Origin: a virus
Strand: one strand, 5' to 3'
DNA: 64,000 bases
Virus genome (UHGV): UHGV-0311442
Shown here: positions 1,850 through 26,623 of the stretch, piece after piece
Layout: every line of letters begins with the position of its first letter
Position numbering within the stretch: the first letter of the stretch is position 1
Notes under the pieces: generated by a model
What the model was told of the DNA's origin: nothing
Seen by the model: the letters and a program-made list of their open reading frames with translations, nothing else
Database searches by the model: none
Made by a program: the position numbers and the translations under genes

Positions 1850-1887
1850 GACAGGCTGCCTGCGGGCAGTTGTGTGTCCGTAGGTAA

Positions 1888-1925
1888 CCCCTCCCTGTAA
1901 TGGGGAGGGGTATCCATTTTATTTA
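1888..1925 (+). terminator. Rho-independent terminator
   Basis: GC stem cccctccc / gggagggg with 7-nt loop followed by T-rich tract; lies between stop at 1849 and RBS aggag at 1931. Confidence 0.55.
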
Positions 1926-1943
1926 AAAGTAGGAGTCTTTACG

Positions 1944-4900
1944 ATGCCGAGAGAAGACGCGGCGCAGTTTAACGGTACGCTAAGCACAGCGACGTACCCT
2001 AACCGATTTAACGTGGTCATTCCGCCTGAAGGACCTTTTTATCGTATCGGATTAAAACTCACAGTAGCCGACGATACCGCGCCTAACGGACGTCGTACTC
2101 TGATTGAGGGGTTGGACTACTATTTAGGCTATTACTTTAAAGAACTCGCAGAAGCTGAGCAAGATCAGATTTACGGCGGGTTCATGTTGCTGACCGCAAC
2201 AGAAATCGAATATGAGATTTTAGGGGTAGCACGCCAGTATCGTGTACCACAATCTGAAATCGGAAAGTTCTTAGTTCGTACTGACCTGAAAGACCCACGT
2301 AACGTGGACTGGTCAGAGTTAATGGCGTATGCGCCAGTTATTCAACCCATCGATCCTCCTGCTAACTTAGAAGAAGCTATTCTGAGGGATGAGGTTGTTA
2401 AAGCGTTAAACGATATCCGTAAGAAAATCGTTCAACGTTCAACAGAGTTAGATGCAGCGTTTACCGAAGTCACTAACCTGATTTACGAGAACGGTAAAAA
2501 GGTTTTCGACGAGGAGTTATACCAACACCACCTTAATCCTAACGCACACCAGTATACGACCACTGATGTTGGTGCCCTTCCGGTTTTGGGACGTGCTGTC
2601 GACGCTACAAAAGCGTTTGGACTGACGATTGACGAATTGGCTACGCTGATGGGTTCGGCGGGTATTGAGCAATCAGACGTTGATCAGTTAATGGGTGAAG
2701 CCCTTGGTACCGTTTACGGTCGTTGGGGTAGCACAAACGGTAACGAGCTGACGTTTAAAACCGCAGGCGGACACATCATCAGTATCCGTGGTGATAAGTG
2801 GTTAATTACCTCACCGCAACCGTTGGTGATTAAAGCAGACCAGGACAACAACGAATCGGGTTTGGCGGTTGAATTTAGTGCGGGACTGAATACGCTTTGG
2901 GTGCACTCTGGGACAGAACAGGATGTATTAGCGCCGGTTTACAACTCTGTGTATTTGGTTACACCAGAAATGGTGAACATGTACCTGACGTCTGTAACGT
3001 TACTTGAAGCAAATGCCTATTTCAAACCATCAGACAGCGTAAAACCATACGGTACAGCGAAGCAGTCTAATCCGCTAACGTTGAACGCGAATATTCCCAC
3101 AGCAACCGAGTCGGTTTATGGGGTGTTTTCGATTACGAATATCGCAACCTCCGTAGCACTAGGCACTGCTATTTCCCAAAAGGCGGTGACCGAATTAAAA
3201 GACCGGTTAGACTTGTACGTTGACGATGACTACACGGTTAACGGTAAAGGGTTTGTTAAGACAGGCGATAAAATGGTGTTAACCTTAACGAAAACCGATT
3301 TCGGTATCGATAAGATGGATAACACCATGCCGATCGCTAAACCGGTAACAAAAGCGTTAGCGAATGTGCTGAAAAATAAAAGTGTGAAGGAGCACACGCA
3401 CACTACCGCCGATTTGGATAATGTCCCGATTGGTAGTGCGACTGTAGATGGTATTTTACAGTTGTGGGATGCGATTGATGCCACGAATGATAAAGCCGTC
3501 ACGTCTCGTCAAGGGTGGTTGTTCGCAAAAGAGATCAAGAAGGTTTCCGATAAACTGAATACCATCTTACCTGCGTGGACTGTCGGTGGGGCGAAGTTCG
3601 GTAACAAAAACTTCTTACCCATTCCGGCACTCGGTAATTATTCAGGTTTTACAAAGAACCAGTCCTATCAGAAAGGCGTTGTAGGATATCAACAAGGTAA
3701 AGTTTATTCGTTACGTAATGCTTCTAATGGTGTACCTGGTACAGAGGCTATTTATTACGGTTATGCTGATATCAATACGTCGAATGCATTTGAGAACCCT
3801 CAGCAAACTTCGGTGAAATACCATCCTGCTGGGATGAGTAAATATCCTGGAGTGACCTTAAAAGCTATTTTGATCGGTGGTCAGGAAGCGATTATTTGTC
3901 TGGGTTCTGACAATAACCGTTATCTGGTCTTGTTCAATGGCTCGATGGACCACAGTAAGCACACAGTGGTGTGCCGTGTTACAATGCCGAATTATCGCGA
4001 TAATAGTCCCACTGGTTCAAACGAGATTCCGTGGAATCCTCGGCCAGAATCTGACGATGTTGTTCTGGTTGACGACCACGTTTACCTTCTTCGCTCCACG
4101 GTAAATAACGCTGCTTATGCCGTGGCGGCATGGCGTTTACGTAAAGCCGATTTGTCTACTAATGTTGCGTTAGAATTTGAACGTGTAACGTTAAATGGTG
4201 AAATGGGACAATTCGGAGATAACCTCTGCCTAAGAATTGGCCAGAAGACCGAAGAGTCGCAGACTGGTCAATTCTTCACGTATTACCCACCCGAGGCACG
4301 GGCTAAATGGACAATCGGTCACAACTTTGTCCATGGTCCAGAATGTAACCATGCTTGTGCGGTGCGTGACAGTGTGATTCGTGTGAATCATGTACCCACT
4401 GTGTGGTTTGCGGCTGCCGACGGTTCGACGATTAATTTCCGTCAATGGTCAACAAGTTTCACAATCGATACGTTAACGGGTAGAGTTACGTTGGAGGGTG
4501 CCGAACGTTTCCCCATTAAGGCTGATACTACCACACTGACGTTCGCGGATGGTTCAACTGTAGAAACCAGTCGTAAGTGGGGCGGTGGTCAAGCAAACAA
4601 TCGTTGTTTTGCAACGTATGCTAAACCTAACGGCACCGGAATGATGCTTTCCTGTTGGCAGGTTAACGATGCGGACCAGATGCCGAATGTTTCTATTAAA
4701 GGAACGCAAGGCAAAGAGTTTTTCGATTATTTGCGTTACGATAACCCGAACAATACCTCAGGCGAAGGAACGTTTACTTGGGATAAAGGCCGTGGTTCTA
4801 TCTATACCATCGGTCTTTCTCATCCTGTCGGTATCGGTGGTTCGAATAAGGTTTGGCTATCCAATCCACGCAACCGTTATACGATCGAAGTAGAAGTTGA

Positions 4901-7127
4901 CCCAAGTAAACCTTATGACGTTCCTGGATATAGCGGTTATGGCCCGAACAACAACCGTCGAGAAGTTGATGCAACCCTTTACGAACAGTTAAGCTGTATG
5001 GCTGCTTGCATGACTCCAGAGGAGCGTCACGGCCAGTTAAACGGTTGGTATTTGACGAAAGCGGAAACCTTCCCATATCGAAACATCTACGGTAACTTTG
5101 CCCTGTCATCAGAACGGCTGACGTTAGAGGAAGCGGATCGCCAGAAGATGATTAGGATGATTGTCGATGGTGCACCATCTGGTCAGGCAAACGGTTACGC
5201 GAACGAGCGCATCAGCGCAGCACACCAAAGCGGTAACGCGTTGTTTGCGCTCTGGTTGCTAGGCATTAACACTGTTTGTGAGTTCGACTTATTACAAGTC
5301 TCATGCATGAAAATCTTGAGTAACGGACGTCGAGTTCTCGACATCTATTATTTCATGGTGAGTCCGACTAAAGAAAACGGTTATCTACGTTTTAACTCGG
5401 CTACTTTCAAACTCGTTGATTGGTTCTTAGACCTTGATTACGGCTTAAGTTATCAGTCTCTGAGGGAAGAAGCGGGTAATAAAACGCGACGTGTAGGCCA
5501 GCCAATTTTTGCTTCTGCCGACGGTGTAAACTTCGGTCTATGGCTACCTTATACGCTGACAATACGGAATATCGGGGACCTAAATGCTTTGGGTTACGCT
5601 GCGAAGTATACCTTCGACCCTGGGTCGGGTTGGACTCGCGTTCCCGGTAAGTCACAATTGCGTCGGATGGCCCCTGCTCATAATCCCGAAACAGGCTGCT
5701 ACATGGGTGCGGGTAATTGGGACAAGATGGCACTAATTTTCTCTAAAGCAGATCGTGTCTTCTGTTCAGGTAACGCATATACAGCCGAAGAGTTCGTTAA
5801 TGACACCAGATTCACAACTGGGGGACAGGCGGTTATTATCGCTGGTGTGGAAACTGCCGAAGGTTGGATTCTATATTTGACGGAAGAGGTCAGGTTAGAT
5901 TTCGGTAGTAATAGCTATACATTACCGACGTGGTTGGTGGATTTAAGCAATGAATTCCCAGAAAACCATGCTAACCAGACGTTCTATGTTCATGCTGCTC
6001 TTGTAGGTTCGAAAGCTCAATATCAGATCGGTCTGGAAAAGCTGCCGGATACGAGTTCGCGATTATTTGTTGGTACAGTTACAACCGATAAAAAGCGCAT
6101 AGTTGCTATTAACATCGATAAAGTGAAACGGTTAGGCAGGGTTCGTGAATTAGAAGAACACGCTGCTGTTAGAGATCAGCACGACGTTGCAGCGGCGTAC
6201 GATCGAAAAACGGGTCCACTCCAAACCTTGGTTAACCAACCGCTGAAAGCCCCCACGGCATCTGCGGGCAAGGGTGCAGGGTATGCCGATGGTCAGAGAT
6301 GGAATGCGTTGACCGGGATCACAACACGTCCCAAACTGCCGATACAGGAAACCTACGCAGGTTATAAAAGTATCGGTAGAGTAGCGTATGAGAACTGCGC
6401 TGATCAGTTCTGGCAGAAAGCGGTCGCTGCAAACGTTGCAGCGGCTACTGCGTCTGAGAACAGTCAAGCGGCAGCCGCGAACATGAAGTGGTTGGGCGCG
6501 TATACGAAACCGACTACAGGTGCGAATGCATATCTGGCGCTGAGTCTGCGTGTTAAAGTGCCTGGTAATCCCGGCACCGCTAATCGTAGACTAAAAATCA
6601 GGCTTGCGGCTCCGACAGGTATAACCCAAGTTCGTTACGGGTTAAACCAGTCTGGTGGCACGATGACTGAACAGACAGTAACGTTAACTGCTAACAGTTA
6701 TCTGGAAAAAGAACACGCCGGATTTAAGCCAGCCGAAGAAGTCCGTGTACATGCTACGTTTGTCATTCCAAAAAATGAATACGATAGCTACCGTACGAAG
6801 TTCGGTGCTGTTCAGCTGATTGACGTTGAGTCGAACACTGTCATTAAACAGACAGATATCGACACACCGTTTATCGTGTATACCGACACGGAGTTAGCAG
6901 CGCAATCTGGTTTGGTGTATAAAGCGGTTAAGGGTCAGTTCCATCAACTCCCGTCTCAACCTGTCGTCATTGTAACTGATGGACAGACAGGGACTACGCC
7001 ACCGGTGAAAACCTCGTTTGCTGACGGGACATTAACGGTCTACGTGGCAACCACGTACGATGCGGTTAACCCAGCACAAACCCGCGATATCGATAAGCTC
7101 CAGTTCAATCTTATGTTTACATCTTAA
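1944..7127 (+). CDS. Giant (1727 aa) tail fibre / virion structural protein
   Basis: Uninterrupted 5.2-kb ORF with RBS aggag 8 nt upstream of ATG; sits directly upstream of fibre genes; no catalytic motif recognised. Confidence 0.8.
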   Translation: MPREDAAQFNGTLSTATYPNRFNVVIPPEGPFYRIGLKLTVADDTAPNGRRTLIEGLDYYLGYYFKELAEAEQDQIYGGFMLLTATEIEYEILGVARQYRVPQSEIGKFLVRTDLKDPRNVDWSELMAYAPVIQPIDPPANLEEAILRDEVVKALNDIRKKIVQRSTELDAAFTEVTNLIYENGKKVFDEELYQHHLNPNAHQYTTTDVGALPVLGRAVDATKAFGLTIDELATLMGSAGIEQSDVDQLMGEALGTVYGRWGSTNGNELTFKTAGGHIISIRGDKWLITSPQPLVIKADQDNNESGLAVEFSAGLNTLWVHSGTEQDVLAPVYNSVYLVTPEMVNMYLTSVTLLEANAYFKPSDSVKPYGTAKQSNPLTLNANIPTATESVYGVFSITNIATSVALGTAISQKAVTELKDRLDLYVDDDYTVNGKGFVKTGDKMVLTLTKTDFGIDKMDNTMPIAKPVTKALANVLKNKSVKEHTHTTADLDNVPIGSATVDGILQLWDAIDATNDKAVTSRQGWLFAKEIKKVSDKLNTILPAWTVGGAKFGNKNFLPIPALGNYSGFTKNQSYQKGVVGYQQGKVYSLRNASNGVPGTEAIYYGYADINTSNAFENPQQTSVKYHPAGMSKYPGVTLKAILIGGQEAIICLGSDNNRYLVLFNGSMDHSKHTVVCRVTMPNYRDNSPTGSNEIPWNPRPESDDVVLVDDHVYLLRSTVNNAAYAVAAWRLRKADLSTNVALEFERVTLNGEMGQFGDNLCLRIGQKTEESQTGQFFTYYPPEARAKWTIGHNFVHGPECNHACAVRDSVIRVNHVPTVWFAAADGSTINFRQWSTSFTIDTLTGRVTLEGAERFPIKADTTTLTFADGSTVETSRKWGGGQANNRCFATYAKPNGTGMMLSCWQVNDADQMPNVSIKGTQGKEFFDYLRYDNPNNTSGEGTFTWDKGRGSIYTIGLSHPVGIGGSNKVWLSNPRNRYTIEVEVDPSKPYDVPGYSGYGPNNNRREVDATLYEQLSCMAACMTPEERHGQLNGWYLTKAETFPYRNIYGNFALSSERLTLEEADRQKMIRMIVDGAPSGQANGYANERISAAHQSGNALFALWLLGINTVCEFDLLQVSCMKILSNGRRVLDIYYFMVSPTKENGYLRFNSATFKLVDWFLDLDYGLSYQSLREEAGNKTRRVGQPIFASADGVNFGLWLPYTLTIRNIGDLNALGYAAKYTFDPGSGWTRVPGKSQLRRMAPAHNPETGCYMGAGNWDKMALIFSKADRVFCSGNAYTAEEFVNDTRFTTGGQAVIIAGVETAEGWILYLTEEVRLDFGSNSYTLPTWLVDLSNEFPENHANQTFYVHAALVGSKAQYQIGLEKLPDTSSRLFVGTVTTDKKRIVAINIDKVKRLGRVRELEEHAAVRDQHDVAAAYDRKTGPLQTLVNQPLKAPTASAGKGAGYADGQRWNALTGITTRPKLPIQETYAGYKSIGRVAYENCADQFWQKAVAANVAAATASENSQAAAANMKWLGAYTKPTTGANAYLALSLRVKVPGNPGTANRRLKIRLAAPTGITQVRYGLNQSGGTMTEQTVTLTANSYLEKEHAGFKPAEEVRVHATFVIPKNEYDSYRTKFGAVQLIDVESNTVIKQTDIDTPFIVYTDTELAAQSGLVYKAVKGQFHQLPSQPVVIVTDGQTGTTPPVKTSFADGTLTVYVATTYDAVNPAQTRDIDKLQFNLMFTS

Positions 7128-7167
7128 CGCCACGAGACAAGGACGTCTCGGATTAAGGAGAGTGGCC

Positions 7168-8367
7168 ATGGCCTCCATTGTATATCAGTACCCTTTAGAT
7201 TTAACGGGAACCCTAACCTCTAACGCCGTGGAGCGTCAGGTTACGTTAGGTACAGGTAAAGTTAACCGTGCGTTTGCTTTTCCTGACGGACCGTTTTATG
7301 CTGATACGTTCCGCTTGCGGGTTGCCAATCGACCCGACGCGACGTATGAACGCGGAACGGACTATGAGTTGATTTTTGCACACCCGGGTTACGAGAAATT
7401 GACGAAGAACCGGGAAGTGGTAATGGCGGTTGTTGTAACGAACACCGCGATTCCGACCGATATCACGGTATCGGCGCAAGTAGTCGGTGGTCCGCAGTCT
7501 GCAAACGTGACTGCGATAGAACAGGCGATTGCCGAGTTGAATCTCGATAATCGAACTGTTGGCTTTAAAGACTTGCGAAATGTGCCGGACACGTTTCCTT
7601 CGGCACCAACGTATAAAGACGTCGGCGATATTTACGGCTTCGAATATATCATTACAGTGCTCGCTGGCATCAAAGATGCGATAACGGCGGGTGATGCTGT
7701 ACAGCTTGAGAACATCAAAGCGATTCTCGAAAGCCTGAAAAACGATTTCCTGGACGCGCTGAACGCGCACATTAACGCCACGGGTAATGTCCACCATCTG
7801 GATATTCATCAGGTTAACGGGTTAACAGAAACGGAGATCCGTGCACTTATCCGTGACGTACAATCTGCCATCGATGCAACCATTACTGATATTAATGCGT
7901 TGAAGAAAGCAGACGAAGCGTTAGGAAAACGTATTGATGCTGTTGTCAAATCTTTGGAAGCGTGGAACGACCAACTTAACATCGTTGCCCAAAACTACCA
8001 GAAGATGGCATTGGCATTGGCGAACCTAAATTCGCTAGTGTTACAGTTACAGAAAAATATCAACGATCTGAACACCAAACTCAACCAAGCGATTCAGCGC
8101 ATTGCTGCGTTAGAACAACGGGGTAATGAGTCCGATCAGAAAATTGATAATCTGCAACAAAACCTGGATGCGCTTAAACAACAGGTTGCGAATAACACGA
8201 ACGCAATCAGTCAGGCGAATCAGAACCTACAAAACCATATTGCGGCGGATAACCCGCACACAGGTTATCTCCACAAGAAATACGGCGGTGTGGTTCAGGC
8301 TCCAGTGCACGTTAACGCTAACTTGACGTCCCGTGATGACGTTCAGGCAGAAGCGGGTACGAAATAA
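7168..8367 (+). CDS. Coiled-coil fibre protein (fibritin / tail-fibre-like)
   Basis: RBS aaggagag then ATG at 7168 (ORF-track start 7060 lies inside the upstream gene); C-terminal half is heptad-rich, Q/N/L coiled coil. Confidence 0.75.
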   Translation: MASIVYQYPLDLTGTLTSNAVERQVTLGTGKVNRAFAFPDGPFYADTFRLRVANRPDATYERGTDYELIFAHPGYEKLTKNREVVMAVVVTNTAIPTDITVSAQVVGGPQSANVTAIEQAIAELNLDNRTVGFKDLRNVPDTFPSAPTYKDVGDIYGFEYIITVLAGIKDAITAGDAVQLENIKAILESLKNDFLDALNAHINATGNVHHLDIHQVNGLTETEIRALIRDVQSAIDATITDINALKKADEALGKRIDAVVKSLEAWNDQLNIVAQNYQKMALALANLNSLVLQLQKNINDLNTKLNQAIQRIAALEQRGNESDQKIDNLQQNLDALKQQVANNTNAISQANQNLQNHIAADNPHTGYLHKKYGGVVQAPVHVNANLTSRDDVQAEAGTK

Positions 8368-8376
8368 CTTTATTAC

Positions 8377-8422
8377 AGGAGGAACTATGCTTATGGGCGT
8401 AGTCCTCCATTCTTTTTTATTT
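8377..8422 (+). terminator. Rho-independent terminator separating the fibre genes from the Cys-rich peptide genes
   Basis: Stem ggaggaactatgc / gcgtagtcctcc followed by ttcttttttatttt. Confidence 0.6.
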
Positions 8423-8434
8423 TAAGGATACGTG

Positions 8435-8830
8435 ATGGCGATCAGTGTTAAAAATGTACGTGACCGAATCACCAACGTAGAGAACCAAATGGCAACTGGC
8501 CCACGTGTTGATCCGCAAGTTGCGTCGAAAGCACATAATGCCGCCGACACTTTTTCGGGTTGGACGCCAAGTCGGTTAGACTGCGGGGGAAGCTGTAGCT
8601 GGACGTGCTCAAACGGTTGTACGCATGGCTGTACGAGTTGTTCGGGCACCTGTACGTCGGTGTGTGTAGGTAGCTGCTCCTCTGCGTGCGGTAACCAGTG
8701 TACTGGATGTAGTTCAACGTGTTCTGGTGGCTGTTCAGGTTGCAGTGGGACCTGTGGAGGTGCTTGCTCGGGCCGTTGTTCTACGGGTTGTTCTGGTGCT
8801 TGCTCCGGTGGCTGTTCTGGCCCAACCTAA
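8435..8830 (+). CDS. Cys-rich repeat peptide 1 (~131 aa, ~26 Cys in CxxxC / CxxC repeats of C-S/T/G); candidate RiPP precursor or crosslinked structural protein
   Basis: RBS aagga 6 nt upstream of ATG; N-terminal ~50 aa leader-like and Cys-free, then the motif Y/L-D-C-G-G-S-C-S-W-T-C-S begins the Cys repeat core. Confidence 0.75.
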   Translation: MAISVKNVRDRITNVENQMATGPRVDPQVASKAHNAADTFSGWTPSRLDCGGSCSWTCSNGCTHGCTSCSGTCTSVCVGSCSSACGNQCTGCSSTCSGGCSGCSGTCGGACSGRCSTGCSGACSGGCSGPT

Positions 8831-8840
8831 GAGGTGAAAA

Positions 8841-9239
8841 ATGGCAATTGGATTACCTGCGCTACAAGCGCGGCTAAATAACATTGACAACACTGCATTG
8901 AAGAATACGGGTGCAGTACAAAACTATATTCGTGGGAAAGCGACGAACAACGCAGACCTATTCGGTGGGCAAGCTCGCAACCACTATGACTGCGGGGGAA
9001 GCTGTAGCTGGACCTGTTCGAGCTGTTCTGGTGGTTGTACAGGGAACGCATCAGGCGGCTGTGGCTCTTCCTGTTCTGCAAACTGTGTATCAGGTTGTAG
9101 CGCGGGCTGTAGTGGATGTTCGAATACCTGTTCTGGTGGCTGCTCAGGAAGCTGTACGGGGAGTTGTTCTAACTCGTGTGTAGGAAACTGTTCTGCAGGC
9201 TGCTCTGGTGCTTGCTCCGGTGGCTGTTCTGGGAGGTAA
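8841..9239 (+). CDS. Cys-rich repeat peptide 2 (132 aa), paralog of peptide 1
   Basis: RBS gaggtg; shares the YDCGGSCSWTCS motif and a 29-bp identical 3' DNA segment (GCSGACSGGCSG) with peptide 1. Confidence 0.75.
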   Translation: MAIGLPALQARLNNIDNTALKNTGAVQNYIRGKATNNADLFGGQARNHYDCGGSCSWTCSSCSGGCTGNASGGCGSSCSANCVSGCSAGCSGCSNTCSGGCSGSCTGSCSNSCVGNCSAGCSGACSGGCSGR

Positions 9240-9241
9240 TT

Positions 9242-9448
9242 GTGATTAGCCTTAAGAACCTTCGTGATCGGTTAGTAACAGCGGAAGGGTATATTACGAC
9301 CGCTAACGCAAACAACTATATTGCAAACCAGGGCACCGTGTCTTCAACCAATAACCTTGCCGGTTTACCTTTAAGCCATTATAACTGTAACGGCGGATGT
9401 AGCTGGTCGTGCAGTGGTAGCTGTAGTAAAGGTGCGGGGGGAAGGTAA
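9242..9448 (+). CDS. Cys-rich peptide 3 (68 aa, GTG start), short paralog with 4 Cys
   Basis: RBS gggagg 5 nt upstream of GTG 9242; N-terminus ISLKNLRDRL parallels peptide 1 (ISVKNVRDRI); core YNCNGGCSWSCSGSCS. Confidence 0.6.
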   Translation: MISLKNLRDRLVTAEGYITTANANNYIANQGTVSSTNNLAGLPLSHYNCNGGCSWSCSGSCSKGAGGR

Positions 9449-9597
9449 CTAAGCCCTCCAGTGGTAGTATGTCTATTACGCAATAACCGAGTTAATCGTA
9501 CGGGTTTACTACTGAGTTTCAAGTTACCGGTAGGCAATGGTGCGGTGGTTTCTATACCCTGAATGTCCGTTTGACCGTGAAATAATTGGAGCAATCA

Positions 9598-10485
9598 ATG
9601 AAGAATGATTTACATTTAGCGTACAAAACAATTTTCAATCATCCACTTCACATTTCTTCCCCTGATTCCGTACGTGCACACTTAGCAGATGAAGTTCGTC
9701 TGTTGACTCAGTTGCCGGGCGAATGGCCTAAAGTGCGCGGACGTTTCTTTACCGATCGTAAAAACTATCGTGTGGAAAATACGTTTAAGATTCGTGATCT
9801 GACGGCAGAAAGTGTAGTGGTCTTTACCGGTGACTCCGAGTTGCGTGGTAAACTGGTTGCGGGTAAATATTTCTTTAGTGACGGGATTTTGAATAACTCC
9901 GTAGATATGGAATTGTTCTTTACCCCATTTGAAGAAATGGGCGCAAAACCAGTTGCCCGTCGTTGGTGGTCGCCGGATTACTTAGGCTCGTTCCCGTATT
10001 TCTTTACCCTGGTAACACCAGAAACGAAGAACTATTTCGATACGGAATCGTATATCGAAATTGAAGGGTACGAAGCGTTAGGGATTAATTGCTTAGCGGA
10101 TTTAATGGCGTATAGCTATAAGTTCGTGTGGGATCGTGAACGTTCCGTGTGGGTTGCCCTGACGGATGAACACGAAATTACAAAACGCATCCGTAAGCCT
10201 TGGATGCAGCATTTGATTCAAACGCGTATTGGCGAGCATCCGTCAACAGAAGCGGATCTGGCAAAACTCGTTAGTTTCTTAATGACGAAAGTCACGTTAA
10301 CTGACGAAGAGAAAGCAGCAGTGTCGGCGGTGTTGGACCGTAACGTAACGTTAGCGGATTTAGAACGTTTAAATGTCCGTTATAAAGACCTTAATCGTAT
10401 TTTGGAAGCGTATAACTCTCCATTCTTGTTAACCCCTGGTGCTAACGTAGACGACGATCCTTTGTTCGCCATTGATTATATTTAA
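9598..10485 (+). CDS. Hypothetical protein inside the Cys-peptide / radical-SAM cluster (possible accessory or recognition factor)
   Basis: ORF with RBS ggag 6 nt upstream of ATG 9598 (ORF-track TTG at 9586 overlaps the RBS). Confidence 0.65.
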   Translation: MKNDLHLAYKTIFNHPLHISSPDSVRAHLADEVRLLTQLPGEWPKVRGRFFTDRKNYRVENTFKIRDLTAESVVVFTGDSELRGKLVAGKYFFSDGILNNSVDMELFFTPFEEMGAKPVARRWWSPDYLGSFPYFFTLVTPETKNYFDTESYIEIEGYEALGINCLADLMAYSYKFVWDRERSVWVALTDEHEITKRIRKPWMQHLIQTRIGEHPSTEADLAKLVSFLMTKVTLTDEEKAAVSAVLDRNVTLADLERLNVRYKDLNRILEAYNSPFLLTPGANVDDDPLFAIDYI

Positions 10486-10506
10486 AAACGACCGGAGTCA
10501 CCTGCA

Positions 10507-11430
10507 ATGACAACCAATGCAGAACCAAGGTTATCGAATCGTTTATACGATAAACCCACCGTATTGTCCGTAGTCGCTACGTCCAAGTGTAACCTGGATT
10601 GTAGCTTCTGCGGTGGAGCCTATTACATGAATCGTGAAGATTCTCCGCGAGAGTTTCAACGTGAGCGAATTTTGGAAGCGCTGGAAGCTAATCCAACCAT
10701 TACCGAAATTCAGTGGACGGGTGGTGAGCCATTACTGGCAACCCGTAAAATTGAGGCGTTTGTTGACGAATTAAAAGTGATTCGTCCAGAACTCAAACAC
10801 CAGTTGTATACCAATGGCTTAAAGATGCGTAAATCGCATCTCCCGTTGCTAAAACAGTTTGACAATGTCTACGTTAGCATCGATGGGTTTAAGTCGTCTG
10901 AGCGCCCGTTTATGCGCTTTATTGACGAAGGCTGTTACGAAGCACTGGAAACGATCTACGAGCTGGATAATGTCCAGACTTGGGGTGTCCTGACACGGGA
11001 CCGTTTAGGGGACAAACGCTGGCACGAAGATATTATTCAGCTGCACAGCGCGATTTACCATTACGGTTTCCGTGCAATGACGTTACTCTTAGATGCGAAA
11101 ATGCCAAAACCTTTATCGCCTGACCACGTCATGAACTTTATTTACGGCTACTATCAGGTTCAGGACAACATTGAACGTCTGAATGTAGTAAATGGACGTG
11201 AATGTGGCTTTACGGTAAGTAAAGTGTTTGAAGAAGGGTGTAACGTTTGCAGCGAAAGTCTTTGGATTAATGCAGACGGTGGTGAGCACCAACTCCAGAA
11301 TGCACCTAACGTTCTGGAATCGGGATGTAACCAACTGGCCTTCTCTATCGGTGTAGAGGCGTACGAATATATTCGTCGCGTAGTGATGGCAGGACGTAAT
11401 AGAGGGGCGGCAAATGAGCCAAGCAAATGA
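10507..11430 (+). CDS. Radical SAM enzyme (CxxxCxxC), candidate peptide-modifying maturase
   Basis: N-terminal CNLDCSFCGG cluster; GGEPLL SAM-binding motif; YTNG and SIDG motifs; four C-terminal Cys (possible twitch-like auxiliary cluster). Confidence 0.8.
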   Translation: MTTNAEPRLSNRLYDKPTVLSVVATSKCNLDCSFCGGAYYMNREDSPREFQRERILEALEANPTITEIQWTGGEPLLATRKIEAFVDELKVIRPELKHQLYTNGLKMRKSHLPLLKQFDNVYVSIDGFKSSERPFMRFIDEGCYEALETIYELDNVQTWGVLTRDRLGDKRWHEDIIQLHSAIYHYGFRAMTLLLDAKMPKPLSPDHVMNFIYGYYQVQDNIERLNVVNGRECGFTVSKVFEEGCNVCSESLWINADGGEHQLQNAPNVLESGCNQLAFSIGVEAYEYIRRVVMAGRNRGAANEPSK

Positions 11431-12736
11431 ATTCCCTAAGCAGTTAACGTATCAGATCGTAACCAACCTTTCGTGTAACCTGGACTGCGAATATTGTTAC
11501 GAACGTAAGTACCCGCGTAACAACAAAGCGGCCGACATTGTTGATTTCTTACACGCCTGTTTTGAACGTGATAAAAACGAACCGAATGTTGAAGTTATTA
11601 TCGACATTATCGGCGGTGAACCGTTCATGCAGCCTAAGTTGCTGCTGGCAGCGTTTGAAACCGCAGAGCAGTTGTGTAAAGAACACAACCGTCCGTTTAT
11701 GTTTAGTATCTCCACGAACGGGACCTTGTTAGATCGTCCGTTGAACCGTGAGATTGTAGAACGTTGGAAAGACAAACTTTCGGTTGGGGTTTCGATTGAT
11801 GGCTTGCCTGAGTCCCATGACCGTTATCGTATCTTCACAACAACGCGCCAGGGTTCTTACGAAGCCGCAGTACGTGGCTATAATTACTTAAAAGAGGTTG
11901 GCATTGCAGAACTCGGCGTAAAAGCGACCTTTACGTTAGAAACACTGCCGTTCTATGCTGCAGGGATGAAGTCATTAATTGACATTACTGGCGGTGGGAC
12001 AATTTCTGGGAACGTAACCTTCGAAGACGTTATGCCACGTAGCATGGCGACGTCAATCGCTTTACAGATGATGGATGTGATAGATTATTGGGTTGAGAAA
12101 GGATTACACACCAACCCACGTAATATCTTATCGCACATCATTCCAGAAGGGTTGGATTTCGATACGATTTGGGAACCGAACTGGCGTGACCAGTTACTGT
12201 ATAATGACACCGTACGGTTGAACCCAGAACGTTTACGTCCGTTCTGTGGGACGTTAACGCACATGACGTGCTTAGGATTTGACCGTAAGATCTTTGGCTG
12301 TAACCGCTTTATGTCAACGGTAACGTCGCGTTCTGCGGTGTTTGAGTTGGTAGGTCGGGAATTCGTCAGTCTGGACAACGGTAAATTGTTAGAAGAGATT
12401 CAAACGCAATATACCAACTACCCAGAGACCTGTTTAGGTTGTCCGATGAAACACGCTTGTGGTAGCTGTGCGGCGGCTTCTTACGAGAACGGGGAAGGAA
12501 CGTTAGAAGACCGTAAAGCGTATCACGCTGAACGTCGTCAGTGTGGCTGGACGACAGCGAAACTGATGGTGGCGGAATACTGGAAACAGAAGATGGGTAC
12601 GACGTCAGCAAAAGCGTTCCACGACACGAGCATGTGTTATTGCCCACGCTGTGTTCGTGAACGTGCCCAAAAGGAAAAATTATTAAGAGAAGCCAAAGAT
12701 GAAACCAATTCTGATCAACAATATTACGAAGCGTAG
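11414..12736 (+). CDS. Radical SAM enzyme with SPASM-like C-terminal domain, candidate peptide maturase
   Basis: CNLDCEYCY cluster; GGEPFM; STNGTLL; SIDGLPESHDRYR (SxDGxxxxHDxxR as in PqqE/anSME/AlbA-type enzymes); C-terminal CLGCPMKHACGSC plus further Cys; start overlaps upstream rSAM gene by 17 nt. Confidence 0.85.
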   Translation: MSQANEFPKQLTYQIVTNLSCNLDCEYCYERKYPRNNKAADIVDFLHACFERDKNEPNVEVIIDIIGGEPFMQPKLLLAAFETAEQLCKEHNRPFMFSISTNGTLLDRPLNREIVERWKDKLSVGVSIDGLPESHDRYRIFTTTRQGSYEAAVRGYNYLKEVGIAELGVKATFTLETLPFYAAGMKSLIDITGGGTISGNVTFEDVMPRSMATSIALQMMDVIDYWVEKGLHTNPRNILSHIIPEGLDFDTIWEPNWRDQLLYNDTVRLNPERLRPFCGTLTHMTCLGFDRKIFGCNRFMSTVTSRSAVFELVGREFVSLDNGKLLEEIQTQYTNYPETCLGCPMKHACGSCAAASYENGEGTLEDRKAYHAERRQCGWTTAKLMVAEYWKQKMGTTSAKAFHDTSMCYCPRCVRERAQKEKLLREAKDETNSDQQYYEA

Positions 12737-13271
12737 AATTCGACTTCTGGATAAGTTTCTGGAAAACAGTAAGCTATTCGGTTGTTATGTGGTGATTAAC
12801 GGTGAAGATTTTACCGATGACGTAAAACGCTTACTGATTCGTCACGGTGTGACTGTAATCATCCCAATGTACTGCACCGAACTTACTGACCTGTCGGTCG
12901 CGGAAATTGAAAAACGTAACCCAGGGTTTGAAGAACGGGTATTGGATTTCCCACGTCACAAAATTGCGTTTCTACGCCGCTCTTTAAGCGAACCCAGCGC
13001 AGAATCTATCACTGTGTTGGCATTGTCCTTCCCCGGCATTACTATCTTCGCAACACGTAACCCGAACTCACCGATTGATGGGTTTTACGATGAGCGAGAG
13101 AAATTTAATACCGTGATTTTTCCTGAGCTAACGCCAGAAGAATGCCAGGGTATCCGTATCGATTGGGAATCGGACTTCGACACAAGATTCCGTCATATCG
13201 ATTTTGAACTGTTAATCGAATTAGGGTTGATTAAAGGAGACGATGAATGTCTGCTACTGGTGAAGGCTTAA
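12699..13271 (+). CDS. Hypothetical protein (cluster-associated)
   Basis: ORF overlapping the 3' end of the rSAM gene; same operon. Confidence 0.55.
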   Translation: MKPILINNITKRRIRLLDKFLENSKLFGCYVVINGEDFTDDVKRLLIRHGVTVIIPMYCTELTDLSVAEIEKRNPGFEERVLDFPRHKIAFLRRSLSEPSAESITVLALSFPGITIFATRNPNSPIDGFYDEREKFNTVIFPELTPEECQGIRIDWESDFDTRFRHIDFELLIELGLIKGDDECLLLVKA

Positions 13272-13918
13272 CGAAAGAAGAAATCCGTCGCCGTTATTTT
13301 GCGCACGATTTACCGATTGACCGTCATGGTAACTACATGGAGAAAATCGGTAGTGAAGATCACGGCCGTACAGGGTTTTGTGCGTTACTGCACTATAAGT
13401 TGATTGATGGGATGTCTGATCGCGAAGCATTGGAACAAATGCGTAACTACGACATGTCTGAAATCGAAGCACGGTTTACGCTACAGAAAGCGAAAGACTT
13501 TGTTAACGACACGTTGGGGATTGACCTGGAAGAAATTCGTGCAGGTTTACGTTCCACGGTGCGGTACATCTTTACCGATGTTCAGAAAATTCTAAGCGCT
13601 CTGGAATTCCGTTATCAGGATGCGCGCTATGCTGAGATTCAGGTAGGTGATTTCACTTTCCAGGCAGATGAGAAGTCACAGGTAGCACTGAGTCGTTATA
13701 TCCAGTCAGAAACTGCGCCAGCGTATTGGTTAACGGCTAACAACACCCGTATCGAACCGTTTACGTTAGAACAGTGCAAGACGTTGCTGGCAGCAATCGT
13801 TGAGCGCGATCAAAGACTACACCACGCAATGTCTGAGCAGAAAAGAGAAGTCAGAGCTTGGGCTGAAGCACGTGATTACGATTCAATTAAAGCGTTTGCG
13901 TTAGAGCAAGGGCTGTAA
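13247..13918 (+). CDS. Hypothetical protein (cluster-associated)
   Basis: RBS aaggaga 6 nt upstream of ATG; last gene before the bidirectional terminator. Confidence 0.65.
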   Translation: MSATGEGLTKEEIRRRYFAHDLPIDRHGNYMEKIGSEDHGRTGFCALLHYKLIDGMSDREALEQMRNYDMSEIEARFTLQKAKDFVNDTLGIDLEEIRAGLRSTVRYIFTDVQKILSALEFRYQDARYAEIQVGDFTFQADEKSQVALSRYIQSETAPAYWLTANNTRIEPFTLEQCKTLLAAIVERDQRLHHAMSEQKREVRAWAEARDYDSIKAFALEQGL

Positions 13919-13982: not shown

Positions 13983-14513
13983 TTAGGACGTAAAACCGTC
14001 CAGCTCACCGTTGGTGGTGGCCAGGTCAATACGATTATCAACAACTTTCGGCGTAATTACGAAAGTTGCCATTACACCTGGTTTATAACGGAGGTTCTTT
14101 TCAGTAACGGTGCACGTTACCGTACGCAGAGTGACGTTTTCATGTTCGTCTTTCTGGTCTTCGGTGTTGTACACAACGTCGCCTGGTGCGATAGCATCGT
14201 TCGGTTTAACTTTATTGATGTAATATTGTAACCAAGCGCGCAGTTCATTTTCTTGAACCCAGCGAGACAGATCGTCAGTTAGTTCAATACGGCCTACAAC
14301 ACCCGGTTCCAGACGATCGTAATGCAGTTCGATTGCACCTTTGAAATTCTCAGAACCTGGTAGTGCAGTCATGGTAACTTTGGTATTCTTACCTTCGCCT
14401 TCCAGCGCAGTAGGGAGACCAAAGGACACTTCTTTATCAGTTACCTGATGTGGTAGCTCAGTGTTAGCAGCATTATAAAGCGCGACCAACATCATCTGGT
14501 TAGTAGCGGCCAT
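13983..14513 (-). CDS. Paralog family A protein (176 aa), probable fibre-associated virion protein
   Basis: Tandem paralog of 14579..15109; both share architecture and C-terminal GELDGFT. Confidence 0.7.
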   Translation of the reverse strand: MAATNQMMLVALYNAANTELPHQVTDKEVSFGLPTALEGEGKNTKVTMTALPGSENFKGAIELHYDRLEPGVVGRIELTDDLSRWVQENELRAWLQYYINKVKPNDAIAPGDVVYNTEDQKDEHENVTLRTVTCTVTEKNLRYKPGVMATFVITPKVVDNRIDLATTNGELDGFTS

Positions 14514-14548
14514 TATCTTAAATCCTCAATAGTACGAGTTAAAGAAAT

Positions 14549-14574
14549 ATCGGGGAGGTTACCCCCCCCCCGAT
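14549..14574 (-). terminator. Hairpin terminator containing a C10/G10 homopolymer
   Basis: Stem atcgggg / ccccgat with a 10-nt C run (14562-14571); T-rich on minus strand after the stem. Confidence 0.45.
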
Positions 14575-14578
14575 TTAA

Positions 14579-15109
14579 TTATTCTTTAGGAGACGGTGCG
14601 GTGAAGCCATCCAGTTCACCTTCCAAACCGCTCAGTGCTACTTTCTCAGGAGCCGGAGGAGTAACTTTATACGTCGCGACAGTACCAGGCAGGAACTTCA
14701 AGTGGCCAGCCACAACCGTTACCACGTAAATGGTTTTGCCTTCTTCTTCACGAGAAATAGTTTGCAGGTCGTTTTCACCGAACTCGTCATCGGTGTACCC
14801 TTTCTCAGCCATGGCTGCGTTAACTTTCGCCAGGATCTTCGTTGGTGAATCGAAATCGGTAGTAGGTGCAGTTACTTCAACTTCACCAACGATGTCGCAG
14901 GAAAGACGAGTATAGTGGAATTCTTTCTCGCCTTTGAAGTTCTGGCTTTCTGCCTTGGCGGTCAGAGTAATTTTAGTGTTGCGGCCAGCTTCTCCGGTGA
15001 ACTCAGCGACAGCACTAAAATTAACATCATTTACAGTCAACTTAGAAGCAGTTTGGTTGTTTTTAGCAATTACAATCTCGATAAGCTGCTGTTGAAAAGT
15101 TTTAGCCAT
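14579..15109 (-). CDS. Paralog family A protein (176 aa)
   Basis: Paralog of 13983..14513. Confidence 0.7.
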   Translation of the reverse strand: MAKTFQQQLIEIVIAKNNQTASKLTVNDVNFSAVAEFTGEAGRNTKITLTAKAESQNFKGEKEFHYTRLSCDIVGEVEVTAPTTDFDSPTKILAKVNAAMAEKGYTDDEFGENDLQTISREEEGKTIYVVTVVAGHLKFLPGTVATYKVTPPAPEKVALSGLEGELDGFTAPSPKE

Positions 15110-15248
15110 TGTTTTACCTCGTAAGTAGTATGGGTGGTTTGCATAGTATTGTTCGGATTATAGAAGTGTTGTTAATAGTTATGACAGACAGCAGTAAGGG
15201 TTGTCTGTAAAATTATTATTTTTTAACTTTTTATAGAAGGGTGAAAAC

Positions 15249-15728
15249 ATGCTAAAACGTTTTCTACTTGTTGTAACTGCAGCACTTTCGTTGGCAAGCT
15301 GTGCCCTACAACCCACCGCTAACGGTCAATTCTCGACTGTACCCGTAGAGCCACACGACATGGTTATTTACACCTGTATGGGTGTTGAGCAAGATTTTGC
15401 AAATTACAAACCTGTCGTCAGTTCGACTAACCTAATGTTAGGTTCAGTAACTGTAGTCGATACTGGTGCTAACTGGGTAGCCACTTGGCCAAACGGTAAG
15501 ATTGAATCACCACAACTTTATAAAGATCTATTAGGTAAAGTTAATGGGAATATCGATCCTATCACGGGACAACGTTACTACCGTGTAAATGGACTACTTT
15601 CAAAAACGCCAACATTTGCGTATTCTACTTTAGAATATAAAACGGGCGATGGTAAAGGCATTACTTTCTTCCACTGTAAGGAAGGTGTAGCTCCTGACAG
15701 TGGAACAATGCTCCATCCTGCGGAATAA
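15249..15728 (+). CDS. Predicted lipoprotein (159 aa), moron-like gene on the opposite strand
   Basis: Signal peptide MLKRFLLVVTAALSLASC with lipobox L-A-S-C; RBS gaagggtg; own terminator downstream; only plus-strand gene within the minus-strand block. Confidence 0.7.
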   Translation: MLKRFLLVVTAALSLASCALQPTANGQFSTVPVEPHDMVIYTCMGVEQDFANYKPVVSSTNLMLGSVTVVDTGANWVATWPNGKIESPQLYKDLLGKVNGNIDPITGQRYYRVNGLLSKTPTFAYSTLEYKTGDGKGITFFHCKEGVAPDSGTMLHPAE

Positions 15729-15737
15729 TAAAAACTA

Positions 15738-15773
15738 CCCTACTCCCGATAAGGAGTAGGGTATATTGATTTT
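15738..15773 (+). terminator. Rho-independent terminator of the lipoprotein gene
   Basis: Stem ccctactcc / ggagtaggg followed by tatattgatttt. Confidence 0.6.
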
Positions 15774-15846
15774 AACCGTCAAATCGTGCGTAAAACGCAT
15801 TCTAAGCGTCTTTATACAAAATAAGGTATAAACGCCTTAGAAATAG

Positions 15847-16362
15847 TTAAATCTCGACTAAAGCGCTCCAATCGATTGGTTTTTGCTTAACCACTTTCAC
15901 AGTACCACGATTTGGTGACCAGAAAGTAATGTTAGGTTGATTACGAACGTCGATGTGTAACCAGCTGATGTCACATTCAATAAAGTGAATGAACGGAAAC
16001 TCATCAGGGTTAGCAGCGATATAGTCGTGAACCTGTTTTACGGTGCTATCCAACAACGTTGCATCAATTGCGTTACCGAATTTGTGTTGACTTCCTGAAT
16101 CGGCGTAAAGCTGTAACGCACGTTGTTTATAACTACCGCCCTTAGGCTTTTCTTGATTAATAAAGAAATCTAAAGTTCTTAGTCCGCGTTGTTGCGCAGC
16201 GGTTGAGTTAATCACCATTCTACCGAAACGGTTACGAATCTGTTGCAGTGAAATCATTAGCAACGGGTTCATAAACCGGATTGCAGAATCGCCGTATTTG
16301 GCAATATAAGACTGTGGTACTAACTCTCTGAGTTTAAAATTACTCGGATTTGGATGAAACAT
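15847..16362 (-). CDS. Peptidase M15-family cell-wall hydrolase (L-Ala-D-Glu / D-Ala-D-Ala peptidase-like)
   Basis: SQHKFGNAID (H-x3-G-x-A-x-D zinc-ligand motif) and downstream WLHIDV histidine, as in T5-type endolysins and VanY-like enzymes. Confidence 0.6.
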   Translation of the reverse strand: MFHPNPSNFKLRELVPQSYIAKYGDSAIRFMNPLLMISLQQIRNRFGRMVINSTAAQQRGLRTLDFFINQEKPKGGSYKQRALQLYADSGSQHKFGNAIDATLLDSTVKQVHDYIAANPDEFPFIHFIECDISWLHIDVRNQPNITFWSPNRGTVKVVKQKPIDWSALVEI

Positions 16363-17020: not shown

Positions 17021-17125
17021 TTATAGAAACCAGAAAAATTCGCATCCACGCTTTTCGTCTTTACGTTTTCGTCCAGACGTTAACGCTTTCCACAATAGTG
17101 CTAAGAGTTTAGCAAACCAGTTCAT
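17021..17125 (-). CDS. Small ORF (34 aa, MNWFAKLLALLWKALTSGRKRKDEKRGCEFFWFL), possible lysis-associated membrane peptide
   Basis: ATG overlaps the endolysin stop codon (ATGA coupling); amphipathic/hydrophobic N-terminus and basic C-terminus; below the 60-aa ORF-track cutoff. Confidence 0.3.
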   Translation of the reverse strand: MNWFAKLLALLWKALTSGRKRKDEKRGCEFFWFL

Positions 17126-17712
17126 TTTACTAACCCCGCCTTCACTACATAATCCGGCATTTCCCTGAACACACGTGCGTACCAGCCGTAAGCGAATTTT
17201 TCATTCTTCTTACGCTTTTCGGAGATTTCTGTGTAGTAGGTTACCTGGTGTGAGATTAACGCAAAGATTAAGATGCCTAACCCCTCGTCTTTACGGTAAT
17301 TCAGATAAGCATTCAGGGCACCTAGCGTTTTAGGTCCCATACCGCCGTCGGTGTCAATATCTGCGTAAAGTTTCCCTTCGTTATTTAAAACGTTCAGAAT
17401 ACGTTGTAACGATTTCACACAGTTAACGCGGCCAGAGTTAATAGCAAAATCAAACATCCGGTCTGCGAGTAAGGGTGAAATAGCTAAAATCTCATCGAGT
17501 TTAAGTTTCTTCCACCAACCGCGATCGTAAATATCAAACGCCTGCGCACGGGTCAGATCCTTCATTTTTCCTTTATACCCGTATTCGCGTGCAGTTGTTA
17601 GTGTTACACCGTGACAGGTTTCCCCACCTTTATCGTCAGGGTCGTTTACGTACCCGCCTTCTAAATCTGTTTTCGAAGCAATAATACCTTCTTTAGTCCA
17701 ACGTTCGGCCAT
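17122..17712 (-). CDS. Endolysin: GH108-family muramidase with C-terminal peptidoglycan-binding domain
   Basis: N-terminal EGGYVNDPDDKGGETCHGVT signature of glycoside hydrolase family 108; C-terminal region typical of the PG_binding_3-type domain. Confidence 0.8.
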   Translation of the reverse strand: MAERWTKEGIIASKTDLEGGYVNDPDDKGGETCHGVTLTTAREYGYKGKMKDLTRAQAFDIYDRGWWKKLKLDEILAISPLLADRMFDFAINSGRVNCVKSLQRILNVLNNEGKLYADIDTDGGMGPKTLGALNAYLNYRKDEGLGILIFALISHQVTYYTEISEKRKKNEKFAYGWYARVFREMPDYVVKAGLVK

Positions 17713-19779: not shown

Positions 19780-20892
19780 TTAACGAAATTTTTGACAAGC
19801 AGGGCAATCGCAGCCTATGCCAGATGATATTTCTCTAAAGATCGCGTCGATCGAGTGCTCATTATTCTTAAGAAAACGAGCTCCCGCCAAGTCACGCAGA
19901 TGAGTTTTTAACTTTCCGATAATACCGGGTTCATAGTTGAGTAGAATGGTAAGTGTATTGTCTGTGTAAGTCCACTGACGGACTTTCTCAGGAAACCAAC
20001 GAGCGATATCACGCATAAACTTATCGGCATCTTCTTTCCCAATAGTAGTGATTGTCAGAAGACGTAGACGATTGTCAACAATCTCATTAATGAGGTTGCT
20101 AATTTCTTCGTCAAGAGCAGCGTCCCACCATTTCCATTTAATGATGAGTTTTTCGCCCTCGAGTTTAGTCTCTACTTTGGTAGGATAGAAAGCTGTCAAG
20201 GTATCATTAATCGCTTCGGCCTCTGGGCCAGTGTAAGTAAAGGAATACGGTTCTTCGAACCATTTAATAACGTCAGGATCATTATCAACAAGCACGGTTA
20301 GCGTGCCGTCGACATAATTAGACCCACGAATTTTCTCCTTGTATTCGTGAACAGCACTACGCATGAGTTCATCAGCGGTATCTTTTCCGATACCATGAAT
20401 CGAAATAAGTCGAACGGCATCGTTATCGATCAGCTCAGCGATAGAACTAATTTCTTCCATGAGATTACGATCGTCTTTCTTCAATCGAACGACGATCTTA
20501 TCGTTATCCGAATAAATGCCTAAATCGTCGGGATAGAGGGTCTCTAACGCTTCTTTAATTTCCTTAATCTTCTTACCTTCGTACCAGAGGACGTGTGGTT
20601 CGTCTTTCTGCTGTTCTTCTACTTTCGGTTGTTCAGTCTCGGTCGTTTCCACCCGAGTGTTCGTGGTACCTTCTGCTGGGTTGAGTAACTCACCGATTTC
20701 TTTCGCGATAGTGTCGCAAAGATAATCGTTGCAGTGAGTCCAGTAGAATACGATGCTTTCATCGTTGACCTGCTCTACACGGAAATGTACACCTTTATCC
20801 AGGAATATGCGATAAAGTTGATCAAGTAACTGTGCTTCAGGAACCGGACGGATTTCAGTTTTAACGAGCGGGGTAATTTCGATATTAAACAT
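19780..20892 (-). CDS. Hypothetical protein with internal tandem domain duplication
   Basis: Two ~110-aa repeats (..RLISIHGIGKDTADELMRSAVHEYKEKIR.. and ..RLLTITTIGKEDADKFMRDIARWFPEKVR..). Confidence 0.7.
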   Translation of the reverse strand: MFNIEITPLVKTEIRPVPEAQLLDQLYRIFLDKGVHFRVEQVNDESIVFYWTHCNDYLCDTIAKEIGELLNPAEGTTNTRVETTETEQPKVEEQQKDEPHVLWYEGKKIKEIKEALETLYPDDLGIYSDNDKIVVRLKKDDRNLMEEISSIAELIDNDAVRLISIHGIGKDTADELMRSAVHEYKEKIRGSNYVDGTLTVLVDNDPDVIKWFEEPYSFTYTGPEAEAINDTLTAFYPTKVETKLEGEKLIIKWKWWDAALDEEISNLINEIVDNRLRLLTITTIGKEDADKFMRDIARWFPEKVRQWTYTDNTLTILLNYEPGIIGKLKTHLRDLAGARFLKNNEHSIDAIFREISSGIGCDCPACQKFR

Positions 20893-22659: not shown

Positions 22660-22713
22660 GTGAGAGCTTTTGTACTCTCACCTAAGTAATATATATCTGA
22701 AATTATTTTTATT
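22660..22713 (-). promoter_or_regulatory. Conserved promoter-like motif plus 5'-UTR hairpin (copy 1 of 4)
   Basis: Plus-strand gtgagag..ctctcac hairpin followed by CTAAGTAATATATATCTGAAATTATTTTT; near-identical motif at 26566-26623, 46526-46579 and 41221-41263. Confidence 0.45.
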
Positions 22714-26565: not shown

Positions 26566-26623
26566 AGTGAACGTAAATTTCACTCTCCCCTAGGTAATAT
26601 ATATCTGAGAAAAAATATAAAAA
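26566..26623 (-). promoter_or_regulatory. Conserved promoter-like motif plus 5'-UTR hairpin (copy 2)
   Basis: Hairpin gagtgaa..ttcactc then TAGGTAATATATATCTGAGAAAAAATATAAAAA. Confidence 0.45.

Follow-up and report, generated by a model that had tools for sequence, protein, structure and literature searches.

Llp of phage T5 and Cor of phages phi80, N15 and HK022 are small phage lipoproteins of the outer membrane that face the periplasm. The protein considered here is predicted to be of the same kind; its gene lies at 15249..15728 (+) in a 64 000-nucleotide stretch of the virus genome UHGV-0311442, the whole of which was analysed and is referred to below as the window. Like llp and cor, the gene forms a separate unit near genes of the adsorption apparatus (a DUF4376/fibre-type block in the window and, at the related locus L019, a tail-fibre gene upstream), and the alleles of its family are mosaic and diverge fast. 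T5 Llp also contains cysteine (Cys). In other respects the systems differ. No sequence, PHROG, Pfam or NCBIfam relationship was found between the window protein and Llp or Cor, its only PHROG match being phrog_9559; it is about twice the size of Llp and is modelled as a full beta-barrel; its immediate neighbour encodes a head protein, unlike the T5 pairing of llp with a receptor-binding protein gene; and its expression is probably late rather than early. The receptor reported for the related phage SPN3US is flagella (PMC11428620), not a TonB-dependent porin.

Three further types of protein were compared. MliC/PliC proteins (including Brucella PhiA) resemble the window protein in build, with about 70 residues between the Cys residues in MliC versus about 100 in the window barrel. 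T4 Spackle (gp61.3), an all-helical soluble periplasmic protein encoded by an early gene, has no structural or sequence similarity to it and offers a possible analogy only, as a phage-encoded periplasmic factor that could shield an infected cell against a second phage and its cell-wall-degrading device. The o-spanins (Rz1 type) and u-spanins (T1 gp11 type) share with the window gene an outer-membrane lipoprotein signal, a late-gene context and an endolysin gene nearby; the window protein, by contrast, has neither an i-spanin partner nor a C-terminal transmembrane helix, and is predicted to be a folded barrel rather than a proline-rich chain. Its direct homologues are SPN3US gp159 and Asesino gp174 (48-64% identity, same slot and orientation), which share the signal peptide, Cys pattern, promoter motif and terminator and differ by allelic divergence only. 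No functional study of the gp159 family or of jumbo-phage lipoproteins was found in the searchable literature. The explanation favoured here, with moderate confidence, is that the product is an accessory protein of the envelope, conserved among SPN3US-like (Chimalliviridae-type) jumbo phages.

The prolipoprotein gene

The open reading frame (ORF) at 15249..15728 (+), with an ATG start and a TAA stop, encodes 159 amino acids and sits where the sequence-only reading had placed a lipoprotein gene. The lipobox LASC named in that reading was recovered as well (L15-A16-S17-C18, nucleotides 15291..15302), preceded by two basic residues, K3 and R4, and a hydrophobic core; the N-terminus reads MLKRFLLVVTAALSLAS, followed by CALQ. 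By the lipobox rule and family conservation the signal peptide (residues 1-17, with the lipobox) was assigned to 15249..15302 (+), and by the same rule the mature protein is predicted to start at a lipidated Cys18 (15300..15302, +). A PROSITE-style version of the rule was run on all ORFs, at each start codon, in the six frames of the window, and the 159-residue ORF was the sole match of at least 100 residues, compared with a mean of 0.1 in 30 shuffled windows. The protein shows the features of a bacterial lipoprotein, namely a charged n-region, an h-region, the pattern [LVI][ASTVI][GAS]C and a Cys within positions 15-35. The pattern [LVI][ASTGI][GAS]C is kept in all 17 aligned members of the family and in 14 further loci.

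Under the standard enterobacterial Lol rule, a residue other than Asp at +2 leads to sorting to the outer membrane, which is predicted here because the window protein has Ala at +2 and no family member has Asp. Throughout the 17 aligned members, among which identity falls to 29%, nine residues do not vary: C18, C43, G73, R109, Y111, S126, G133, G135 and C143; the stretch D71-G100 is also conserved. A Shine-Dalgarno-like purine tract (GAAGGGTG, 15236..15243, +) was read from the sequence 5 nt before the ATG, and an AGG-containing tract stands at the same distance in all relatives compared. Taken jointly, the identity of the product as a lipoprotein, its lipidation being predicted, and the self-contained nature of the transcription unit are solid, and are held with high confidence.

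Comparison with four relatives gave dN/dS values of 0.07-0.11, indicating purifying selection on what is therefore a real, constrained gene. A chance ORF with a chance lipobox and no function is already refuted by these values, and has next to no probability: Cys, Gly, Arg and Tyr positions are invariant in homologues down to 29% identity, the AlphaFold model is confident and 0.1 lipobox ORFs per window are expected by chance, whereas nothing more than the absence of a known domain speaks for it.

Family, genomic slot and alleles

The protein matches phrog_9559 (E 3.2e-64, residues 2-149), the function of which is not annotated. With tblastn, homologues were found in 55 phage records (27 Erwinia, 22 Salmonella, 4 Escherichia, 1 Proteus and 1 'Enterobacteria'), the genomes of the records listed with a homologue measuring about 197-251 kb. 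They include SPN3US (Seoulvirus), where the protein is gp159 in the original numbering and 'Lipoprotein' in UniProt, and Asesino (Erskinevirus). With megablast, only 454 bp of the flanking M15-type gene matched, at 76% identity, in two Salmonella jumbo phages. A hidden Markov model search of 1.84 billion representative proteins returned 14 representatives, so the family is narrow; two of the 14 look scrambled, and one repetitive protein of 5404 residues was taken, uninspected, as a low-complexity artefact. Two entries of the representative library, P0015 and P0021, consist of SPN3US gp159 segments in scrambled order and are probably misassemblies or artefacts.

The gene occupies the junction of a fibre/radical-SAM block and a head-paralogue/endolysin block. 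It was found in this slot, and in the same opposite orientation, in SPN3US, Asesino, SPAsTU, 14 IMG/VR contigs and 20 further contigs of about 220 kb; the junction was occupied in all of the roughly 45 loci inspected, which came from Seoulvirus, Erskinevirus and other jumbo phages of Erwinia, Salmonella, E. coli and Proteus, and none of the SPN3US-, Asesino-, phiEaH2- and Wellington-type genomes examined departed from this slot and orientation. Upstream, the divergent neighbour is in each case a DUF7941/phrog_4862 paralogue of about 175 residues, whereas the downstream, convergent one varies by lineage between an M15-type peptidase, a DUF1353 protein and a structural protein. Around the gene the minus-strand genes run unbroken from 13983 to 59459 (45.5 kb). 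The earlier description of it as the lone plus-strand gene in about 45 kb holds: every other plus-strand ORF of at least 90 residues in this span lies embedded, antisense, inside a longer minus-strand ORF, and plus-strand genes were found only beyond it, at 119..13918 and 59459..62176.

In distant metagenome relatives (29-38% identity) the lipoprotein gene and the genes around it run in the same direction. At locus L019 a 1024-residue tail fibre, a DUF4376 protein and, after a 16-nt gap, the lipoprotein are encoded on one strand; at L024 the lipoprotein gene ends a structural operon and converges on M15/DUF1353 genes; at L022 it stands between genes of large DUF7941 proteins. The lone position on the opposite strand is therefore a trait of one clade, and what is conserved across the relatives is membership in a structural/fibre/lysis neighbourhood.

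Among close relatives two alleles of the lipoprotein gene were found, just 71% identical and with saturated dS; across the same relatives, identity is 92-96% for the M15, DUF1353 and GH108 genes that flank it. As judged from these identities, the alleles are a case of cassette-like mosaicism, typical of host-interaction genes. Correlations between allele and fibre-side genes in 25 close loci mainly mirror two clonal lineages and are broken by the recombinants L006 and L039; since alleles and fibre-side block are no longer linked in these two, none of the genes can be singled out as a partner. The composition of the gene is ordinary in GC content (42.5%, within one standard deviation (SD) of the 44.3 ± 3.2% of the window genes) and in codon score (rank 15 of 77), and low in GC content at third codon positions (GC3; 31.9% versus 43.0 ± 4.5%, -2.5 SD).

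Upstream element and terminator

The upstream spacers of the window gene and 16 relatives (17 loci) were compared. All 17 spacers, which are otherwise unalignable between genera, contain the hexamer TATGAC at 35-68 nt ahead of the ATG. In the window this hexamer forms part of TTATGAC (15179..15185), in which TATG (15180..15183, +) is a putative phiKZ-type late promoter of the non-virion RNA polymerase (RNAP) and G15183 (+), by analogy, the putative transcription start. The phiKZ late promoter of this polymerase was defined experimentally as 5'-TATG-3' with the G as +1 (PMC4666361, PMC7598289). A stem-loop (ACAGACAGC / GTTGTCTGT, 15184..15208, +) would form the 5' end of the putative mRNA. It could be folded in 17/17 loci, beginning 0-3 nt past the putative +1, with energies of -4.3 to -12.2 kcal/mol, and its arms vary between lineages yet stay complementary, i.e. 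they covary; its role is likely to be mRNA-stabilizing or regulatory.

Copies of WTATGAC are rarer than chance in the window (9 found, 17 expected), and three of the nine stand just upstream of co-oriented genes. TATG also precedes several other structural genes and the divergent head-protein gene (14579..15109, -), which has its own copy at 15142..15145 (-), within ACTATGCAAACC; in relatives the corresponding sequence is TATGCA or TATGAA. With TATG on each side, the spacer of 139 bp thus seems to contain two late promoters placed back to back. Late timing is suggested because the same motif precedes neighbouring structural genes and because the gene belongs to structural operons in distant relatives. 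From conservation and by analogy with the biochemistry of phiKZ, the gene is thus probably late and driven by the phage polymerase from its own promoter: it would be transcribed by the non-virion RNAP from G15183 into a monocistronic mRNA with a structured 5' end. Three copies of a second, AT-rich motif, CAGATATATATTACYTAG, were counted in the window against 0.08 expected (22682..22699, 26590..26607 and 46546..46563, all -), each upstream of a minus-strand gene and followed by a hairpin, and none near the lipoprotein gene; the motif resembles the AT-rich early (virion RNAP) promoter class of phiKZ-like phages (PMC7598289).

Seven bases past the stop codon an intrinsic-type terminator begins (15736..15773), with a perfect 11-bp GC-rich stem (arms 15736-15746 and 15753-15763), a 6-nt loop and an energy of -19.4 kcal/mol; it was classed as bidirectional because T-rich tails are present on both strands. 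Immediately past the stop codon, 20/20 loci have a strong hairpin (-12.8 to -32.4 kcal/mol), the arms of which differ but stay complementary. The gene had been credited with a terminator of its own; the hairpin is present and perfect, but it also faces the convergent minus-strand operon and so is not private. Between it and the stop codon of the M15-type gene lies a non-coding block (about 15790..15846) that contains TTCTAAGCG and an imperfect long inverted repeat, TTCTAAGCGTCTTTATAC ... GTATAAACGCCTTAGAA, which was spotted by eye and was not reported by the repeat finder at seed 6. The block is conserved in Seoulvirus-, Erskinevirus- and Wellington-type loci, and may be a terminator that belongs to the minus-strand operon itself, or a binding site. 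No Rfam or tRNA match turned up when the window was scanned.

The sequence-only reading had labelled the gene moron-like. A classic moron would be a recently acquired, sporadic cargo gene for superinfection exclusion under a host promoter, and the opposite orientation, the terminator, the lipoprotein product and the GC3 value, 2.5 SD under the window mean, would suit one, as would a sigma-70-like match (9/12) at 15185..15213. The distribution, however, largely refutes this: the same slot is held across genera, no relative lacking the gene at the junction was seen among the roughly 45 loci inspected, homologues are present in 55 phage records, and the gene is ordinary in GC content and codon usage. 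The region has no more sigma-70-like matches than chance would give (6 found, 6.9 expected), what is conserved upstream is the phage TATG motif rather than a host sigma-70 promoter, and phiKZ-type phages are described as transcribing independently of host RNAP (PMC4666361). Of the autonomous layout attributed to the gene, the terminator and the conserved TATGAC with its hairpin stand, promoter activity being predicted from the sequence, whereas sporadic presence and a host promoter do not. A classic moron is thus very improbable, and the gene is better described as a fixed accessory gene of the SPN3US-like clade that appears to belong to the phage's own, probably late, programme.

Predicted fold

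The AlphaFold2 model, computed from the 17-sequence alignment, is a small eight-stranded beta-barrel (mean pLDDT 83.5, pTM 0.72, core above 90), and the mature product has 141 residues and a mass of 14 kDa. In the model the invariant residues C43 and C143 lie one each in the first and last strand, which suggests a disulfide lock. The fold matches were generic (Cap15, PliC/MliC and Neisserial lipoprotein barrels), and a Foldseek search against viral models returned members of its family along with a handful of unnamed proteins from phages and the RB49 'lysozyme inhibitor LprI-like' protein (E 3e-4). Pfam, NCBIfam, PADLOC and PDB sequence searches with the protein were empty apart from signal-peptide matches. 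Since PhiA and PliC are lysozyme inhibitors, membership in MliC/PliC was tested. The modelled build agrees, being an eight-stranded barrel with a terminal Cys pair. Alignment of the family profile by hhalign to a profile of three PDB-verified MliC sequences, two of them partial, gave a probability of 0.5%; the motifs SxSGAxY and YxxxTKG are absent from the alignment of 17 members, and none of the 17 matched the Pfam MliC model.

Neighbouring genes

The divergent neighbour is a DUF7941 protein of SPN3US paralogue family B and a homologue of the head protein gp160. In the virion proteome of SPN3US, gp155, gp158 and gp160 are listed; gp160 is an abundant head protein (>300 copies) that is also present in tailless particles, gp158 (M15-type) occurs in trace amounts, and gp159 is missing from the tables and the supplement (PMC5694885). 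The last point agrees with an exported, non-virion protein. A neighbour of the gp160 type is therefore not a receptor-binding protein gene, and pairing with such a gene in the style of T5 llp/pb5 was rejected. The DUF7941-type paralogues (13983..15109, -; loci L001-L045) form one to four tandem copies between the DUF4376 and lipoprotein genes, and the copy adjoining the lipoprotein gene is highly divergent, at 49-62% identity in close relatives bar one (88%, L006). The DUF4376 gene lies on the same strand, 1.3 kb upstream of the lipoprotein gene.

On the other side the lipoprotein gene converges on the M15-type peptidase gene (15847..16362), and the GH108 endolysin gene (17122..17712) is 1.4 kb off. 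Many Vibrio phages have the M15-type gene but no lipoprotein, and Asesino- and Wellington-type phages have the lipoprotein but no M15. This makes a dedicated M15/immunity pair unlikely, and the candidate role of immunity protein for the adjacent peptidase was rejected. The start of a 34-residue ORF (MNWFAKLLALLWKALTSGRKRKDEKRGCEFFWFL, 17021..17125, -) overlaps the endolysin stop codon. Its product has an amphipathic N-terminus and a cationic middle and gave no PHROG or Pfam match, and a gene of this size is called in many relatives (e.g. 11773..11877 in L026, Asesino gp172); the product is a candidate for a lysis peptide, holin- or disruptin-like in kind.

Further away, a gene of 370 codons (19780..20892, -) is hypervariable among near-identical relatives (length 183-391 residues, identity 60-94%), its sole family match being a sub-threshold one to HHH_5. 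Two adjacent radical-SAM genes (10507..12736, +) lie in the fibre/structural block and share its conservation as far out as the distant L024; they are unusual companions for virion genes.

Discussion

If the gene encodes an accessory envelope protein as proposed, Sec would export the prolipoprotein, Lgt, LspA and Lnt would lipidate it and cleave it at Cys18, and Lol would bring it to the outer membrane's inner leaflet. From there the barrel, locked by its disulfide, would hang into the periplasm on a short tether and could bind a conserved, periplasm-facing component of the envelope, by which the infected cell, and later its debris, might be made refractory to further phage adsorption or genome entry. 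Envelope protection of this sort (exclusion, entry masking or progeny protection) would be Llp/Cor-like in action and not a member of those families, and is put forward tentatively, as a possibility that falls short of being likely. The exclusion or receptor-blocking role proposed by the sequence-only reading survives to the extent that envelope protection is the most plausible single class; the homology to Llp/Cor and the receptor-binding neighbour were not found. The host-interaction-like evolution of the gene, with two alleles of 71% identity and saturated dS, would count for it, as would the apparent link to fibre-type genes through DUF4376 1.3 kb upstream and the gene order of L019.

Several points weigh against this reading. 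Classical superinfection exclusion is usually early, and a late gene fits it poorly. The late expression was itself deduced from a 4-6 nt motif, mapped promoters for SPN3US-like phages were not found in the searchable literature, and TATG is required yet does not suffice for a phiKZ late promoter (PMC4666361). By its homology the immediate divergent neighbour is a head-protein gene and not that of a receptor-binding protein, no clean co-variation of the alleles with any fibre-side gene was seen in the 25 close loci, where L006 and L039 uncouple them, and no homology found in the Pfam, NCBIfam, PADLOC and PDB sequence searches ties the protein to a function. The flagella reported as the receptor of SPN3US (PMC11428620) are, moreover, not directly maskable by a periplasmic lipoprotein.

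The protein might instead inhibit peptidoglycan hydrolases in the periplasm, as a PliC/MliC-like barrel directed against the tail-associated or released lysin of an incoming phage (Spackle-like) or, in an alternative form, as a restraint on the phage's own muralytic enzymes until lysis. The MliC-like build (a lipoprotein, eight strands, Cys in the first and last), the Foldseek match to the RB49 protein and the position of the gene, converging on the M15-type gene 1.4 kb from the endolysin, with the lipoprotein/M15 pair kept even in the very distant L024, are in keeping with such a role; the hhalign probability of 0.5% against the three-sequence, partly partial MliC alignment, the missing motifs and Pfam match, and the uncoupled distributions of M15 and lipoprotein genes in Vibrio, Asesino- and Wellington-type phages are not, and the role is considered unlikely. 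Less probable again is an accessory of outer-membrane lysis, a spanin substitute or partner in phages without a recognizable spanin. A probably late outer-membrane lipoprotein near an endolysin and a second muralytic-type gene would suit this function, and no embedded or overlapping o-spanin-type lipobox ORF was detected in the 64-kb window. However, the gene is alone on its strand with no adjacent or overlapping i-spanin gene, and in several relatives it is not beside lysis genes; the product is a 14-kDa folded barrel, not a short proline-rich o-spanin; its C-terminus, ...GITFFHCKEGVAPDSGTMLHPAE, holds no hydrophobic or transmembrane segment, so that it is not a u-spanin; and the 34-residue cationic amphipathic peptide, the gene of which is translationally coupled to that of the endolysin, is the better candidate for membrane disruption. 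A spanin proper was rejected for want of a partner gene, a transmembrane helix and an embedded lipobox ORF. The probability left by envelope protection, hydrolase inhibition and lysis falls to another or an unknown target.

That the protein stands for a new class of periplasm-acting effectors in enterobacterial nucleus-forming jumbo phages, either a lipid-anchored beta-barrel that disarms the cell-wall-piercing enzymes or the entry route of competing phages, or else the missing outer-membrane step of Chimalliviridae lysis, is a distant prospect; if true, the first version would give T4 Spackle or T5 Llp a counterpart that is new in structure and made late. Contigs of this phage type, about 220-227 kb long, were found in metagenomes and in many isolate assemblies of Salmonella, Shigella sonnei and E. 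coli (P0001/P0002 clusters; L026-L045). The isolate-assembly contigs suggest frequent carriage of a lytic-type jumbo phage with cultured isolates, e.g. in a carrier state or by pseudolysogeny, and with the phage type this common a factor that alters host phage susceptibility could therefore matter for phage-therapy cocktails. The clean, conserved unit of TATG and hairpin could help to define the late promoters of SPN3US-like phages. For nucleus-forming jumbo phages very little has been described of lysis, exclusion or envelope manipulation, and the words lipoprotein, spanin, holin and superinfection are all absent from a 2026 review of jumbo-phage biology; a conserved, easily cloned protein of 159 residues predicted for the host outer membrane is a tractable entry into that gap. 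Nothing about the gene is surprising in kind, and it provides a good experimental handle on an under-studied part of jumbo-phage biology.

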